Assembly: GCF_002760655.1 (NCBI RefSeq)
Contig: NZ_PDOC01000003.1
Span: 200,840 to 224,839, forward strand
DNA: 24,000 bases
Source of the DNA: Massilia eurypsychrophila
GTDB taxonomy: Bacteria; Pseudomonadota; Gammaproteobacteria; Burkholderiales; Burkholderiaceae_D
Direction of reading: 5' to 3'
The notes below the pieces were generated by a model. The model searched no databases and was not told where the DNA came from. It saw only the letters and a program-made list of their open reading frames with translations. Below are positions 6,992 through 14,740 of the stretch, piece by piece. The position numbers were made by a program, and so were the translations under genes. Each line of letters starts with the position of its first letter. Position 1 is the first letter of the stretch.

Positions 6992-7816
6992 TTACCCGAT
7001 GCGCTTGTACCAGTGCTGGTGCGGGAAAACAGGCTGGTAGCTGGCGGCGAGTTCGTCGCCGTCGGCGATCTCGCGGTCCAGTCCCAGCACGCCGAACAGC
7101 GACAGGCTGTCGTGGAACAGCCGCATCACGCGCTGGCGCAGCATCGGCCCGAAATCGGGAAGGGCGCGCTGGCAGATGATTAGCTGGAATTCGTTGAACG
7201 ACGCATCGGTCACCAGGTTGTACTGCGCCCACGTGATGCGGTTGCGCAGCGATGCACGCAAGGTCGCGCGGCCATCCTGGACGTCGAAATAATCGGCCAG
7301 CTGCGCCGTGCCGCCGCTTCTGAAATAACTCTCCTGATACTGTTCCATGCGTTCGGCCGGAAAACTGGCCAGGCTGGCGGCCGCCAGCATCTCCTCGTTG
7401 GCGACGGTGGCGTAGATTTCGGTGCGAAGGTGCAGCTGCTCTTCGGCCAGCAGAATCGCCAGCGACCACGCCTGCTCCGGCCCTGCGCATTCGGCCAGCC
7501 ACACCTTCGGTACCGCCGACGCGCGCAGGCTCGCTGCCAGCACGATGCGCAGCTGGCGCGCCTGCTCCGGATCGTCGAACAACGCGGCCGGCTGTACCGA
7601 CAAGGCGCGCAGCAGCGCGGCGCCGGCGCCGGGGTCGTGCAGCACCCGGTCCTGCAGCGACGAGACGGTGTTCAGTGCCCGCGCCTGCATCACCTGGTGC
7701 AGCTTGCGCCGCAGCGTCGGCCGGTCGTAGGACCTGAAATCGTGACCGAAGCGTTGAAACAGCGCTTCGAGCAGCAACTCGATTTCAAGTTCTTCCGTCG
7801 CCAGTCCACCTTCCAT
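6992..7816 (-). CDS. CheR-like protein-glutamate methyltransferase fold with degenerate SAM-binding motifs
   Basis: CheR_N-like helices (LEIELLLEALFQRFGHDFRSYDRPTLRRKLHQVMQARAL) are followed by a Rossmann part colinear with CheR. Start is taken at MEGGLATEE (ATG 7816), 14 nt after the kinase stop; the longer track ORF overlaps the kinase. Confidence 0.7.
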   Translation of the reverse strand: MEGGLATEELEIELLLEALFQRFGHDFRSYDRPTLRRKLHQVMQARALNTVSSLQDRVLHDPGAGAALLRALSVQPAALFDDPEQARQLRIVLAASLRASAVPKVWLAECAGPEQAWSLAILLAEEQLHLRTEIYATVANEEMLAAASLASFPAERMEQYQESYFRSGGTAQLADYFDVQDGRATLRASLRNRITWAQYNLVTDASFNEFQLIICQRALPDFGPMLRQRVMRLFHDSLSLFGVLGLDREIADGDELAASYQPVFPHQHWYKRIG

Positions 7817-7830
7817 TGTCAGGTAGCCGG

Positions 7831-10800: not shown

Positions 10801-12735
10801 GGTGCCGGCCACGCCGGACACGTTTGCCTGTCCGCCCAGCTTGCCCTCGGTACCGACCTCGCGCGCCACCCGCGTCACTTCCGAGGCGAACGAGGACAAC
10901 TGGTCGACCATCACGTTGATGGTGTCCTTCAGCTCCAGGATCTCGCCCTTGACGTCCACCGTGATCTTCTTCGACAAGTCGCCGCGCGCCACCGCGGTCG
11001 TCACCGCCGCGATGTTTCGCACCTGGCCGGTCAGGTTCGACGCCATGAAGTTGACGTTATCGGTCAAGTCCTTCCAGGTGCCGCCGACGCCCGGCACGTA
11101 GGCCTGGCCGCCGAGCTTGCCTTCGGTGCCGACCTCGCGCGCCACCCGCGTTACCTCGGAGGCGAACGAGGACAACTGGTCCACCATCACGTTAATCGTG
11201 TTCTTCAGCTCGAGAATCTCGCCCTTGACGTCCACCGTGATCTTCTTCGACAGGTCGCCGTTGGCCACCGCGGTCGTCACGTCGGCGATGTTACGCACCT
11301 GGCCGGTCAGGTTACCGGCCATCGAGTTCACGCCGTCGGTCAGGTCTTTCCAGGTGCCGGCCACGCCCGGCACGTTGGCCTGGCCGCCCAGCTTGCCCTC
11401 GGTGCCGACCTCGCGCGCAACCCGGGTCACTTCGGAGGCGAACGAGTTCAATTGGTCGACCATCACGTTGATGGTGTTTTTCAGTTCCAGGATCTCGCCC
11501 TTGACGTCGACCGTGATCTTCTTCGACAAGTCGCCGTTCGCCACCGCGGTCGTCACGTCGGCGATGTTTCGCACCTGGCCGGTCAGGTTACCGGCCATCG
11601 AGTTGACCGAGTCGGTCAAGTCCTTCCACGTACCGGCCACGCCCTTCACCTGCGCCTGGCCACCGAGCTTGCCTTCGGTGCCGACCTCGCGCGCCACGCG
11701 CGTTACCTCGGACGCAAACGAGGACAACTGGTCCACCATCACGTTGATCGTGTTTTTCAGTTCGAGAATCTCGCCCTTGACGTCCACCGTGATCTTTTTC
11801 GACAGGTCGCCATTCGCCACCGCTGTCGTCACCGCGGCGATGTTACGCACCTGGCCGGTCAGGTTCGACGCCATGAAGTTGACGTTATCGGTCAAGTCCT
11901 TCCAGGTGCCGCCAACGCCCGGCACGTAGGCCTGGCCGCCGAGCTTTCCTTCGGTGCCGACCTCGCGCGCCACCCGCGTCACTTCCGACGCGAAGGAGCG
12001 CAGCTGGTCCACCATCACGTTGATGGTGTCTTTCAGCTGCAGGATCTCGCCGCGCACGTCGACGGTAATTTTCTTCGACAAGTCGCCGTTCGCCACCGCG
12101 GTGGTCACTTCGGCGATGTTACGCACCTGCGACGTCAGGTTACCGGCCATCGAGTTGACCGAGTCGGTCAAGTCCTTCCAGGTGCCGGCCACGCCTTTTA
12201 CCTGCGCCTGGCCGCCGAGCTTACCTTCGGTACCGACCTCGCGCGCCACGCGCGTCACTTCCGACGAGAACGAGGAGAGCTGTTCGACCATCGTGTTGGC
12301 GGTGGTCGCCGCGCGCAGGTACTGGCCCTTGAGCGGATGGCCGTCCACTTCCAGCGCCATCGTCTGCGACAGGTCGCCTTTTGCCACCGCGCCGATCACG
12401 CGCGCCATTTCAGTGGTCGGGCGTACCAGGTCGTCGATCAGGGTGTTGACCGAACTGATGATGGTGCCCCAGCCGCCGGCCACGTTCGGCACTGCCGCGC
12501 GCTGCGTCAGGCGGCCTTCGCGGCCGACCACGCGCGACACTTCCGTGACCGCCTTGACCATCTTCTCTTTCGTTTCGATGATCTCGTTAAGGGTGTCGGC
12601 GATCTTGCCGGCGACGCCGGTCCAGTCGGACGGCATGCGCGCGGTGAAGTCGCCCTTCTTTAACGCCATCAGCGTCGACAGCAGCAGCTTCGCGTCCAGC
12701 TCTTCAATGAAGTCGCTCATGTTATTCATCGACAT
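7831..12735 (-). CDS. Soluble hybrid sensor histidine kinase: poly-HAMP array, GAF, HisKA, HATPase_c and three receiver domains
   Basis: 1634 aa from ATG 12735 (GAGG SD upstream). No hydrophobic TM segment by eye. Seven HAMP-pair units, six of them close 92-aa repeats. GAF-like segment ([10 protein letters not shown]...[12 protein letters not shown]). H-box [18 protein letters not shown]-boxes DTGVGI and [19 protein letters not shown]. Three REC domains ([17 protein letters not shown]; [19 protein letters not shown]; [18 protein letters not shown]). Confidence 0.92.
10621..12276. repeat. Six in-frame tandem repeats of 276 bp (92 aa) encoding di-HAMP units inside the kinase gene
   Basis: The unit [91 protein letters not shown] recurs six times. 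I counted unit 1 at exactly 92 aa; the six-unit span assumes equal unit length. The promoter-distal unit (10621-10896) is the most diverged, and a seventh degenerate unit lies upstream (about 12277-12560). Confidence 0.9.
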
Positions 12736-14740
12736 TATCCTCGTTTTTTGGGAGTGGAAAAGGTGGCCGGATGGTGCTTCCGGCTCGTGCGATAGGGGTG
12801 TTCTGTAGTGATGCGAACAGCAATGCGGACATCGCCTGCGCCGGCTCCGGCTCGCCCAGCAGCGCGCCCTGGAACTGATCGCAGCCGGCCGCGGCGAGCA
12901 CCTCGAGCTGCGCTTCGGTGTCGACGCCGAGCGCGCGCACCGACAGGCCGAGCGCGCGCGCCAGGTGGATGATCGCCGCGACCATGTCGGCGCCGCCATC
13001 GGCGCCGATGTCGCGCACGAAAGCGCCATCGATCTTGAGGGCGTCGAAAGGCAGGTCGCGCAAGATGGTCAGGGACGCGCCGGCGCTGCCGAAATCGTCG
13101 ACCGCCAGGCGCACGCCGGCCGCGCGCACCGCGTCGAGCGCCGGCTTGACGTCGCCGGCGCCGACCAGCAGGCGTTCGGCAATCTCAAGTTCGAGCAGTC
13201 CAGCATCGATGCGGCATGTGGCCAGGTGCGCGGCGACCCGTTCGGGCAAGTTCGAGTGAATATGCATGGACCCCAGGTTGACCGACATGACCAGCGCCGG
13301 CAGCCCCGCCTTGTGCCATAGCGCGGCCTGGGCGCAGGCCGCGCCGATGGTCCAGTCGCCGACCTCGTCGAGCAGCTTGCGGTCGGTCACCCGGTGCAGG
13401 AACTGCGGCGCGGCCAGCAGGCCCTCGCGCGGATGGCGCCAGTACAGCAGCGCCTCGACGCCGGACAGCGCGCGGGTGCGCACGTCGGCGTGCGACTGGT
13501 ACTGCAGCGCCAGTTCACCGTTGTCGAGCGCCTGCCGCAGCTCGGCCGCCCAGCGCGCGTGTTCGACTTCGCGCGCGTTGAGCTCCTCGCGGAAGTATTC
13601 GATGCTGCCGCGGCGGTGCTGCTTGGCGTGGTACATGGCCGTGTTTGCATTGCGCAGCACGATGGCGGCGCTGGCGCCGTCCTGCGGATACAGGCCGATG
13701 CCGATCGACGACGAGGTGAAGATATGCTGGCCGGCGATCTCGAACGGCTGCGCGTTGGCCTGCTCGATCTTGCGCGCCACCAGGGCCGCGTTGGCGGAGG
13801 CGCCGGCGCCCTCGAGCAGCACGACGAATTCGTCGCCGCCGGGCCGCGCCGCCACGTCAGACACCCGCACTGCGGCCTGCAGGCGCCCGGCGAACAGGCG
13901 CAGCAGCGCGTCGCCGGCTTCGTGGCCGAGCAGGTCGTTGATGCGCTTGAAGCGGTCGAGGTCGAGGAACAGCACGGCGAACTCGCTGTGATGGCGCTCG
14001 GCGTAGGCGACGGCGTGTTCGAGCTGCTGGATCAGCGCGCGGCGGTTGAGCAGGCCGGTGAGGGCGTCGCGGATCGACAGCTCGTGGGCGCGCGTTTCGG
14101 CCAGCTTGCGCTCGGCCACCTCGAGCTCGAGTTCGGCGTTGATGCGTTCGAGGTCCTGCAGGCGCTGCACCCGCAGGTCCTGGTACAGCGCCGACAGTTC
14201 TTCGGTCTTTGCGACCAGCTCGAGGTTGTTGCGGGTCAGGGCGACGAACACGGCGACCTTGGTTTGCAGGATCTGCGGGATCACCGGGGTAAACAAGTAG
14301 TCGACTGCGCCTTTCTGGTAAGCCTGCAGGCGGTGCATTTCGTCGGCGTAGTGGGCGGTGATGAAGATGATCGGCACGGCCGCCGAGCGCGGATGCGAGT
14401 GGATCGCGTCGGCGGTTTCAAAACCGTCCATGCCCGGCATGTTCACGTCGAGCAGAATGACGGCGAATTCGTGCATCAGCACCTGGCGCAGCGCCTCGTG
14501 GCCTGAAGTGGCGGTGATGAGCTCGTACTGGCCGTCGGGCGCCGGTTGATTCAGCAGGCTCTCTAGCGCGAACAGGCTGGCCGGATCATCGTTGACTAGT
14601 AGGACTTTAGGGATCTGCACGTCGGGACAGGTCGGTTGGGGAAATCGTGTGGCGTTAATCGTTATATCGCGGACGACAGAAAAATAATCTTGCTGCCCGT
14701 TAGGGTAAGCATTATATTGTCGTTCGGAAACTAAGTGCAA
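12722..14740 (-). CDS. Response regulator with REC, coiled coil, GGDEF and EAL domains
   Basis: REC (KVLLVNDD...[14 protein letters not shown]...[10 protein letters not shown]). GGDEF with RVSD I-site five residues upstream ([18 protein letters not shown]). EAL domain ([41 protein letters not shown]). The track start is a TTG at 14740 inside AT-rich DNA; the in-frame GTG at 14620 (VQIPKVLLV) is an equally plausible start. Neither has a clear SD. Confidence 0.88.

Follow-up and report, generated by a model that had tools for sequence, protein, structure and literature searches.

What is a CheR-like gene doing directly downstream of a soluble histidine kinase, in a region that encodes no chemoreceptor? 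The question is raised by a 24,000-nucleotide stretch of the Massilia eurypsychrophila genome (RefSeq assembly GCF_002760655.1, contig NZ_PDOC01000003.1, positions 200,840 to 224,839; hereafter the window, with coordinates given as positions within these 24 kb), in which three genes, all on the minus strand, encode a REC-GGDEF-EAL response regulator, a poly-HAMP hybrid kinase and a protein of CheR fold. With moderate confidence, we read the locus as a reduced Cfc-type two-component module for cyclic di-GMP (c-di-GMP) signaling, driven by a class III poly-HAMP kinase, in which the CheR-like protein serves as a non-catalytic partner of the kinase (a pseudo-CheR). The genome, of the family Oxalobacteraceae, is high in GC, and its nearest public relative, Massilia sp. 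TWR1-2-2, has a CheR-like protein 95% identical to that of the window. The three genes and their domains are the following.

12722–14620, minus strand: REC-GGDEF-EAL response regulator (CfcR-like), 632 amino acids (aa) from GTG 14620 (Pfam)
14255–14605, minus strand: receiver domain of the regulator, phospho-acceptor Asp present
13610–14074, minus strand: GGDEF domain of the regulator, GGDEF motif and RxxD I-site intact
12848–13546, minus strand: degenerate EAL domain of the regulator (alignment to MorA 4RNH)
7831–12735, minus strand: soluble class III poly-HAMP hybrid histidine kinase, 1634 aa (Pfam, homology)
10591–12693, minus strand: 15-HAMP array of the kinase (motif counts)
10126–10542, minus strand: GAF domain of the kinase (Pfam GAF_2, E = 2.8e-18)
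9199–9912, minus strand: HisKA (H-box MSHELRTP) and HATPase_c core of the kinase (Pfam, E = 6.1e-20 and 4.1e-27)
7834–8997, minus strand: three receiver domains of the kinase, phospho-acceptor Asp in each (Pfam)
6992–7816, minus strand: CheR-family pseudo-methyltransferase, 274 aa (Pfam, AlphaFold, Foldseek)

The cassette and its CheR-like protein

The three genes are tightly packed. The regulator gene ends (TAA, 12724–12722) inside the kinase gene, which starts at ATG 12735, giving an overlap of 14 nucleotides (nt), and a Shine-Dalgarno sequence (GAGGA) lies 4 nt 5′ of the kinase start codon. The kinase stop codon (TGA, 7833–7831) is separated by a 14-nt gap from the ATG of the CheR-like gene (7816), for which many gene callers choose an alternative start at GTG 7843 (283 aa) that overlaps the kinase stop. 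At the other end of the cassette, the most likely start of the regulator is GTG 14620, the point at which similarity begins in all 23 orthologs; the upstream extension is not conserved, and TTG 14740 is just where the open reading frame (ORF) mechanically begins. No terminator-like sites were found on the minus strand between the three genes. The kinase gene is co-transcribable with the upstream REC-GGDEF-EAL gene and the downstream CheR-fold gene, and is probably translationally coupled to both.

Pfam assigns REC, GGDEF and EAL domains to the regulator (E = 3.8e-21, 1.6e-46 and 1.2e-51), seven HAMP_2 and six HAMP matches, GAF, HisKA, HATPase_c and three REC domains to the kinase, and CheR_N (E = 6e-11) and CheR (E = 6e-16) to the third protein. 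None of the three has a membrane segment, the highest Kyte-Doolittle hydropathy over 19 residues being 1.2–1.6, against 2.7 on the same scale for a neighboring CHASE kinase that does have one. Searches of the whole window by tblastn with E. coli CheW, CheA, CheB and the signaling domain of Tar gave no match. In these respects a first-pass annotation of the same DNA, made by a model from the letters alone, stands: it had described the gene order, the tight coupling with these very junctions (12722/12735 and 7831/7816), the domain content of the three proteins, their cytoplasmic location, the degeneracy of the CheR-like protein, the absence of a methyl-accepting chemotaxis protein (MCP), CheA, CheW and CheB from the window, and a convergent GST gene downstream. 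Its count of five receivers was one too high for the cassette, since the three genes hold four (three in the kinase and one in the regulator) and the fifth belongs to the divergent CHASE kinase.

The CheR-like protein keeps the fold of CheR. An AlphaFold model computed with 39 homologs has a mean predicted local distance difference test (pLDDT) of 90, and the top 10 PDB matches returned by Foldseek for this model are all CheR, including that of B. subtilis (5FTW, template modeling score 0.76/0.82). At the active site, compared with E. coli CheR, R98 is replaced by D, G127 by P, E129 by Q, D154 by V, N231 by R and Y235 by D. Among these, D154 is the acidic residue of class I methyltransferases that stands at the end of strand β2 and holds the ribose of S-adenosylmethionine (SAM). 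R98 and Y235 are key catalytic residues of CheR (PMC3447774). D154 and Y235 are absent from all 120 of the closest homologous clusters and from all 80 orthologous loci, and R98 from every orthologous locus but one, which has an Arg in the aligned column. Within the family, R98 becomes D, T or A, Y235 becomes D or E, and D154 becomes V, A, S, G or H, while the Gly of the STGEE loop is lost and its Glu is variable (Q/E/L/D). The NCBIfam equivalog for CheR, PRK10611, scores 19.3 bits against a cut-off of 435.

The gene is nevertheless not decaying. Its ratio of nonsynonymous to synonymous substitution rates (dN/dS) is 0.12–0.16 relative to close relatives, similar to that of the aminopeptidase N gene, from which we conclude that it is under purifying selection and still functional. 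The residue equivalent to R53 in the N-terminal helix is still basic, and segments that line the pocket are conserved in the family (WLAEC, ATxAN, YNLxTDASFNEF and CRRALPDF).

The regulator appears to be built for synthesis rather than degradation of c-di-GMP. By its motifs, the GGDEF domain qualifies as a diguanylate cyclase, and both the GGDEF motif and the RxxD I-site are invariant across orthologs, whereas the EAL domain does not qualify as an active phosphodiesterase: aligned with MorA (4RNH), whose GGDEF-EAL structure is the best PDB match of the regulator, EGVE has become ALGVD, with Leu in place of the expected general-base Glu, and DDFGTGYS has become DDFGSAGA. The EAL motifs are eroded in almost all orthologs. 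The "c-di-GMP synthase/binding" label given by the first-pass annotation fits this pairing of an intact GGDEF with a degenerate EAL domain. The receiver of the regulator is 44–51% identical to the N-terminal REC of partner proteins from related kinase clusters and only 20–33% identical to the RECs of the window kinase itself. Compared with the kinase, the regulator evolves roughly tenfold faster.

Conservation of the pair and its relatives

To which of its neighbors is the CheR-like gene tied? The window proteins were compared by tblastn with 80 genome loci, all from Oxalobacteraceae and spanning the genera Massilia, Telluria, Duganella, Pseudoduganella, Janthinobacterium, Rugamonas, Herbaspirillum and Paucimonas. 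In every locus with enough flank to be informative (54/54), the kinase gene lies directly 5′ of the CheR-like gene. The REC-GGDEF-EAL gene lies directly 5′ of the kinase gene, on the same strand, in 22 of these 54 loci and is absent from the other 32. The first-pass annotation had proposed a cassette of three genes, to be checked by their co-conservation; the kinase/CheR-like pair passes this check in full and the triad does not. What is conserved as a unit is therefore the pair of kinase and pseudo-CheR, with the regulator as an accessory present in roughly 40% of species. A CheB gene was found only once in the 80 loci, 5 kb away and on the opposite strand.

A second pseudo-CheR subfamily, 39% identical to the first and often below Pfam thresholds, is also encoded 3′ of poly-HAMP kinases, in Massilia sp. 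PAMC28688, Noviherbaspirillum sp. Root189 and one metagenome contig (L081, L088 and L090). The pair in Massilia sp. PAMC28688 (L081, 15040–19796), the second kinase/pseudo-CheR pair of that genome, adjoins a VasX_N toxin-like gene, two DUF6708 genes and IS66 transposase fragments, which suggests that this paralogous pair sits in a mobile or variable region.

The kinase belongs to a known family. Its HAMP array comprises eight canonical (GDL/GDF) and seven non-canonical units, arranged as one N-terminal HAMP followed by seven 92-aa di-HAMP repeats, and the first unit diverges from the rest. The repeats are visible in the DNA as a tandem array with a 276-nt period (10742–12292, 5.6 copies, 84% matches). 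Poly-HAMP arrays followed by GAF, DHp (dimerization and histidine phosphotransfer), CA (catalytic) and REC domains characterize the "class III" kinases (Coles et al. 2026, PMC13446029). Because the architecture matches this description and full-length homologs are 60–81% identical, the window kinase is, by its sequence, a soluble, dimer-type class III poly-HAMP hybrid kinase of the AskA/fungal Nik1 family. These homologs, aligned over 99% of the length, are poly-HAMP kinases of Acidobacteriota, Cyanobacteria, Planctomycetota, Verrucomicrobiota and Gammaproteobacteria, and a plasmid-encoded homolog in Deinococcus deserti (1644 aa, 13 Pfam HAMP matches) matches it with 64% identity over 1637 residues. 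From GAF onward, to its C-terminal end, the kinase is also 41% identical to a CfcA-like kinase of Agrobacterium with the architecture CHASE3-GAF-HK-3×REC (HK, histidine kinase). Judged by such alignments, CfcA-like kinases have a homologous GAF–DHp–CA–3×REC core. The kinase is 75% identical to a Cellvibrio protein, and their C-termini are identical. We considered the kinase C-terminus as a pentapeptide that tethers CheR and rejected it, as the C-terminus is the same in kinases with and without a CheR partner.

Within Oxalobacteraceae this kinase is under exceptional constraint. Across the Oxalobacteraceae genera its HAMP array is 96–100% identical at the protein level, and its GAF domain 94–100% identical in full-length matches, compared in the same loci with 59–95% for aminopeptidase N and 57–95% for the CheR-like protein. 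Recent horizontal transfer was rejected as the cause: nucleotide identity is 88–92%, the proportion of synonymous differences (pS) is 0.3–0.4, and the conservation of the protein is thus due to purifying selection. The dN/dS of the HAMP array is 0.01–0.05, against 0.1–0.5 for neighboring genes.

Relatives of the CheR-like protein that keep their active site reveal where it comes from. A profile search of 1.8 billion representative proteins returned 973 relatives at E <= 1e-30, and among the best 150 of these the R98/D154/Y235 triad is intact in 52. Intact relatives and dead proteins have family motifs in common, such as LAILLxEE and SFNEF. On the contig of one intact relative (P0357), a poly-HAMP-GAF-HK-3×REC kinase, 60% identical to that of the window, is followed by the CheR gene with a 16-nt overlap and then by a stand-alone CheB of 188 aa. 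Scanning metagenomes with the intact-CheR clade yielded 80 further loci. A 3×REC kinase is encoded directly 5′ of CheR in 39 of the 46 informative ones and CheB directly 3′ in 48 of 58; the CheR triad is intact in 67/68 and the Ser-His-Asp triad of CheB in 53/53, and no match to CheA, CheW or an MCP was found in any of the 80. The CheR-like protein of the window is, by sequence descent, a CheR of such kinase–CheR–CheB modules from which CheB has been lost in this lineage. A CheR without a CheB, which had seemed puzzling in the first-pass annotation, is accordingly a lineage-specific loss, since the intact relatives usually have CheB directly downstream.

The composition of these modules varies at both ends. 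The sensor end of the kinase is interchangeable, with a poly-HAMP array in L092 and L102–L105 and a single HAMP or another input elsewhere. In L092 and L104, the poly-HAMP kinase is followed by an intact CheR and a stand-alone CheB. A fourth gene can follow: a REC-PAS-HK in L104, reminiscent of AskC or CfcD, or a REC-PAS-GGDEF-EAL directly after CheR–CheB in L146 and L160. The module also matches 87 plasmid records, of which two were looked at. Agrobacterium tumefaciens pAtCFBP6625b encodes a CHASE3-GAF-HK-3×REC kinase, CheR, CheB and a REC-HK-REC protein, with 4-nt overlaps, and plasmid 2 of D. deserti encodes a poly-HAMP kinase, an intact CheR, a REC-PAS-HK and a GAF-GGDEF protein, with no adjacent CheB. 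In other phyla, poly-HAMP kinases have only an AskC-like REC-sensor-kinase after them, or no related gene. On two unrelated contigs (L084 and L085), poly-HAMP kinases are adjoined by paired small DUF5985 genes (84–91 aa) and a gene of about 130 aa, upstream of the kinase in one and downstream in the other; these may form another recurrent accessory set.

The remainder of the window holds the following features.

1179–2837, plus strand: GlpD-like oxidoreductase
2834–3493, minus strand: YceI
3495–6146, minus strand: aminopeptidase N
6203–6946, plus strand: GST, convergent with and downstream of the CheR-like gene
14945–14974, minus strand: weak sigma-70-like promoter match 5′ of the regulator gene (consensus only, 9/12 positions)
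15056–15793, plus strand: LuxR solo (autoinducer-binding domain and GerE), divergent from the cassette
16287–19295, plus strand: CHASE-PAS-HisKA-HATPase-REC-HPt unorthodox kinase, divergent, with a membrane segment (Pfam)
19369–22764, plus strand: RecC

Two promoter-like sites occur in the region, no more than in shuffled sequences (1.2 ± 1.2). The LuxR solo is a common divergent neighbor, found in 34 of the 54 informative Oxalobacteraceae loci. It evolves fast, being 73% identical in the closest genome, where most neighbors are 93–100% identical and GST 86%, and it lies in a stretch of lower GC content (0.57 against about 0.67). The CHASE kinase is a syntenic divergent neighbor in at least 25 related loci, a count limited by the available flanks. 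It carries the only HPt domain near the cassette. A long antisense ORF opposite it (16254–19355) is probably spurious.

Proposed signaling route and alternatives

How might these parts work together? We propose that a cytoplasmic cue would shift the packing of the HAMP/GAF stack. By analogy with Nik1/Os-1, with AskA/B of M. xanthus and with the salt-stimulated CfcA, this cue is probably a small molecule or a stress of osmotic or solute-related nature. The altered packing would set the level of autophosphorylation at the H-box His, and the phosphoryl group would then pass, directly or by way of the kinase's receivers and an HPt domain, to the receiver of the adjacent regulator. The nearest HPt is that of the divergent CHASE kinase, which we consider a possible phosphorelay partner of the cassette. 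Phosphorylation of the receiver would turn on synthesis of c-di-GMP by the GGDEF domain; the RxxD I-site would provide product inhibition, and the degenerate EAL domain would at most bind c-di-GMP. The pseudo-CheR most likely no longer methylates and is kept as a stoichiometric, non-enzymatic subunit that binds the kinase. It would tune or lock the signaling state of the kinase, sitting at the place where the ancestral enzyme docked on its substrate.

Several observations weigh against this proposal. The regulator gene is missing from 32 of 54 loci and is therefore not an obligatory output. In the window regulator, the conserved receiver Lys (equivalent to K109 of CheY) is replaced by Thr (DYLFTP), as in 22 of the 23 orthologs, whose motif is GA(V/A)DYLFTP, while one ortholog has DYLFAP; judging from the motif, this loss may change how phosphorylation is coupled to output, and could prevent normal activation. 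(One related cluster partner, in L087, reads ATP at this site.) The homology to CfcA and CfcR of P. putida rests on shared architecture and on the Agrobacterium CfcA-like kinase. In P. putida, moreover, mutants in the other cfc genes, the CheR/CheB pair included, kept the CfcR-dependent crinkly-colony phenotype (unpublished, quoted in PMC4951495), so that a role of CheR in the pathway is unproven even there. Finally, the conserved pocket-lining segments of the CheR-like family would be equally compatible with a ligand-binding role.

This last point leads to two other views of the CheR-like protein. It could be a small-molecule sensor whose former SAM pocket binds SAM, S-adenosylhomocysteine (SAH) or another metabolite and relays its occupancy to the kinase. 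A precedent exists in T. denticola, where CheWS carries a CheR-like sensor that is non-catalytic and belongs to a kinase complex (PMC10653840), and an accessory sensor would make sense for a poly-HAMP array that has no dedicated input domain (PMC13446029). The conservation specific to the family is concentrated in the motifs that form the pocket, and AskC, encoded 3′ of M. xanthus askB and hence in the same genomic position as the CheR-like gene, binds ambruticin (PMC7643160). The residues that apparently match E297 and D321 of CheWS are eroded here, however (the Asp is lost and the Glu variable, Q/E/L/D), and the neighboring genes point to no candidate ligand; we regard a sensor as unlikely. 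We give even less credit to an enzyme with a remodeled site that methylates Glu/Gln or other residues of the kinase (in its signaling helix, HAMPs or receivers) or the receiver of the regulator, leaving an adaptation mark that would be one-way or slowly reversible without CheB. The whole CheR fold is indeed retained at high model confidence, with a basic residue at the position of R53 and conserved pocket-lining segments; CheR methylates the receiver of a response regulator, PhoP, in Salmonella (PMC8546571), and in D. deserti an intact CheR accompanies a poly-HAMP kinase without an adjacent CheB. Yet both catalytic residues (R98 and Y235), D154 and the STGEE Gly are replaced across the orthologs examined, and the E297A/D321A mutations, at residues that, by assumption and not by alignment, correspond to the STGEE Glu and D154, abolish SAM binding by CheWS (PMC10653840). 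The kinase, for its part, lacks a methylation consensus of the MCP type: [ASTG][ASTG]xx[EQ][EQ]xx[ASTG][ASTG] has no match in it or in three kinases encoded beside an intact CheR.

A different doubt concerns the wiring rather than the CheR-like protein. The three genes could be mere neighbors, the regulator being a lineage-specific insertion served by another kinase, such as the CHASE-HK-REC-HPt protein, while the poly-HAMP kinase signals to an unlinked regulator. The persistence of the kinase and CheR-like genes in the loci that lack the regulator would fit this scenario, as would the conserved presence of the HPt-bearing CHASE kinase next door, the faster evolution of the regulator and the fact that cfcR is unlinked to cfcA in P. 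putida. On the other hand, the regulator gene, where present, always lies directly 5′ of the kinase gene and on the same strand, and in the window it overlaps that gene by 14 nt, its receiver belongs to the same subfamily as those of the partners in related clusters, REC-GGDEF-EAL genes recur in kinase–CheR–CheB clusters, and the link from CfcA to CfcR is genetically established (PMC4951495). We therefore assign a low probability to an absence of dedicated wiring.

A broader idea concerns what the active modules do. Poly-HAMP/GAF hybrid kinases of the CfcA/AskA type might be methyl-accepting kinases, which the adjacent CheR and stand-alone CheB would adapt by reversible glutamate methylation, so that a single protein would do the work of both MCP and CheA; in the Oxalobacteraceae this adaptation would then be frozen, with CheB lost, CheR catalysis dead, the helix shortened and altered and the former enzyme now an obligate allosteric subunit of a kinase under extraordinary constraint. 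We put this forward tentatively, as possible rather than probable. The candidate methylation site would be the E/Q-rich signaling helix between GAF and DHp (about 9930–10100 of the window, minus strand; kinase residues about 880–935). In every lineage with a pseudo-CheR the GAF–DHp linker measures 57 aa. It is 92 or 99 aa long where a poly-HAMP locus has both CheR and CheB, 64 aa in AskC-type kinases and in D. deserti, whose CheR is intact, and 92 aa in a Nostoc kinase without an adjacent CheR, all lengths differing by multiples of 7. We rejected linker length as a marker of CheR/CheB status, the Nostoc and D. deserti values making the correlation only partial. When the groups are compared, pseudo-CheR kinases also lack an ELQxQQE heptad and carry E901A, and they read NQELAEKA in place of NEELEEKA. 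These changes in the linker sequence may be the trace of a lost methyl-accepting region; the missing heptad and E901A are a lead and not evidence, because kinases without any CheR also carry the ancestral state and have kept the longer linker.

Returning to our preferred reading of a reduced Cfc-type module with a pseudo-CheR, publications already cover both the kinase family and the Cfc pathway, and this is not a new kind of system. We found no description of CheR paired with a poly-HAMP kinase in the searchable literature. The occurrence of class III poly-HAMP kinases within kinase–CheR–CheB modules, a pseudo-CheR that is selectively maintained across the Oxalobacteraceae, with CheB lost, and the extreme constraint on the kinase all appear to be undescribed in that literature. 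Modules of this kind without MCP, CheA or CheW are widespread, as the 87 plasmid records, the 80 metagenome loci and cfcABC of P. putida attest. The locus links them to class III kinases, relatives in bacteria of the fungal kinases that fludioxonil and ambruticin target, and offers a natural experiment, in which a methyltransferase has lost catalysis yet is kept beside a kinase across a whole bacterial family. If the pseudo-CheR binds the kinase, it would show where its active relatives dock, and hence where they are likely to methylate, and would provide a clear case of an adaptation enzyme turned pseudoenzyme regulator. The locus also predicts a cytoplasmic route from stress to c-di-GMP in bacteria common in soil and the rhizosphere, for example Massilia and Duganella.

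Comparison with known systems

A CheR homolog encoded together with a REC-GGDEF output brings to mind the Wsp system (WspA-F and WspR), whose output is likewise c-di-GMP and not motility. Wsp, however, comprises an MCP (WspA), CheW-like proteins, a CheA-type kinase (WspE) and a CheB (WspF), none of which is encoded in the window; a Wsp-like chemosensory system was rejected for want of MCP, CheA and CheW there.

A closer parallel for the CheR-like protein itself is T. denticola CheWS, whose CheR-like domain senses SAM and modulates CheA, and in which the E297A/D321A double mutant loses SAM binding (PMC10653840). Both have a CheR fold without catalytic or receptor-binding residues, and both would be non-enzymatic modules that act on a histidine kinase, as described for CheWS (PMC10653840) and as we propose for the window protein. 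They differ in that CheWS is fused to CheW in a chemoreceptor array and binds SAM, while the window protein is free-standing, lies beside a two-component kinase and lacks the Asp that we take as the equivalent of D321, an equivalence assumed and not aligned.

For the kinase, the reference is the class III family, which includes AskA and AskB of M. xanthus and the fungal group III kinases Nik1/Os-1/Drk1 (PMC13446029). AskA and AskB mediate the response to ambruticin and glycerol (PMC7643160). The poly-HAMP array of these kinases comes without a dedicated input domain, and post-translational modification has been raised only as speculation (PMC13446029). The window kinase shares with them its solubility, the alternation of canonical and non-canonical HAMPs in near-identical 92-residue di-HAMP repeats, and the succession of GAF, DHp, CA and REC. 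The differences lie in the surroundings and the output. AskB is followed by the hybrid kinase AskC and not by a CheR (PMC7643160), the fungal proteins have a single receiver and feed Ypd1 and the HOG pathway, CheR and CheB are not mentioned in PMC13446029 or PMC7643160, and the output is here probably c-di-GMP and not development or osmoadaptation.

The clusters of Agrobacterium pAtCFBP6625b and D. deserti plasmid 2 come closer still, with a GAF–kinase–3×REC core 41–64% identical to that of the window, a CheR of the same clade (LAILLxEE, SFNEF), overlapping, operon-like genes, and c-di-GMP enzymes that recur nearby. In contrast with the Oxalobacteraceae, where both the CheR residues and CheB have been lost, kinase–CheR–CheB clusters keep R98, D154 and Y235 of CheR and the Ser-His-Asp triad of CheB.

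The best overall match is the Cfc system of P. putida, whose cfcABCDE cluster has the gene arrangement of the Agrobacterium plasmid. There, cfcA encodes a CHASE3/GAF hybrid kinase with three receivers (PMC4951495), cfcB and cfcC a CheR/CheB pair for which involvement in chemotaxis was excluded (PMC4951495; bioRxiv 10.1101/2024.11.25.625174), and cfcD a receiver protein, the REC of which shares 48% identity with the CfcR receiver (PMC4951495). The likeness of the window regulator to the receivers of cluster partners (44–51%) parallels this identity between CfcD and CfcR. CfcR is a REC-GGDEF-EAL regulator whose cyclase activity needs its own Asp65 and His496 of CfcA (PMC4951495), and this activity is stimulated by salt (PMC4951495; bioRxiv 10.1101/2024.11.25.625174, citing Tagua et al. 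2022). The two systems differ in several ways. CfcA is bound to the membrane and has a periplasmic CHASE3 domain, while the window kinase is soluble, has a 15-HAMP input and lacks CHASE3; Cfc has CheR, CheB, cfcD and cfcE, while the window has no CheB, cfcD or cfcE and its CheR is catalytically dead; and the regulator gene lies in the operon here, whereas cfcR (encoding CfcR/Rup4959) is unlinked in KT2440. What they share is a GAF hybrid kinase with HisKA/HATPase and three C-terminal receivers, a CheR-family gene directly 3′ of it, a REC-GGDEF-EAL regulator (cognate in P. putida, adjacent here) and the lack of MCP, CheA and CheW. The wiring of the cassette had earlier been left without a counterpart among characterized pathways; its architecture matches that of the P. 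putida Cfc system (PMC4951495) and recurs in kinase–CheR–CheB modules.

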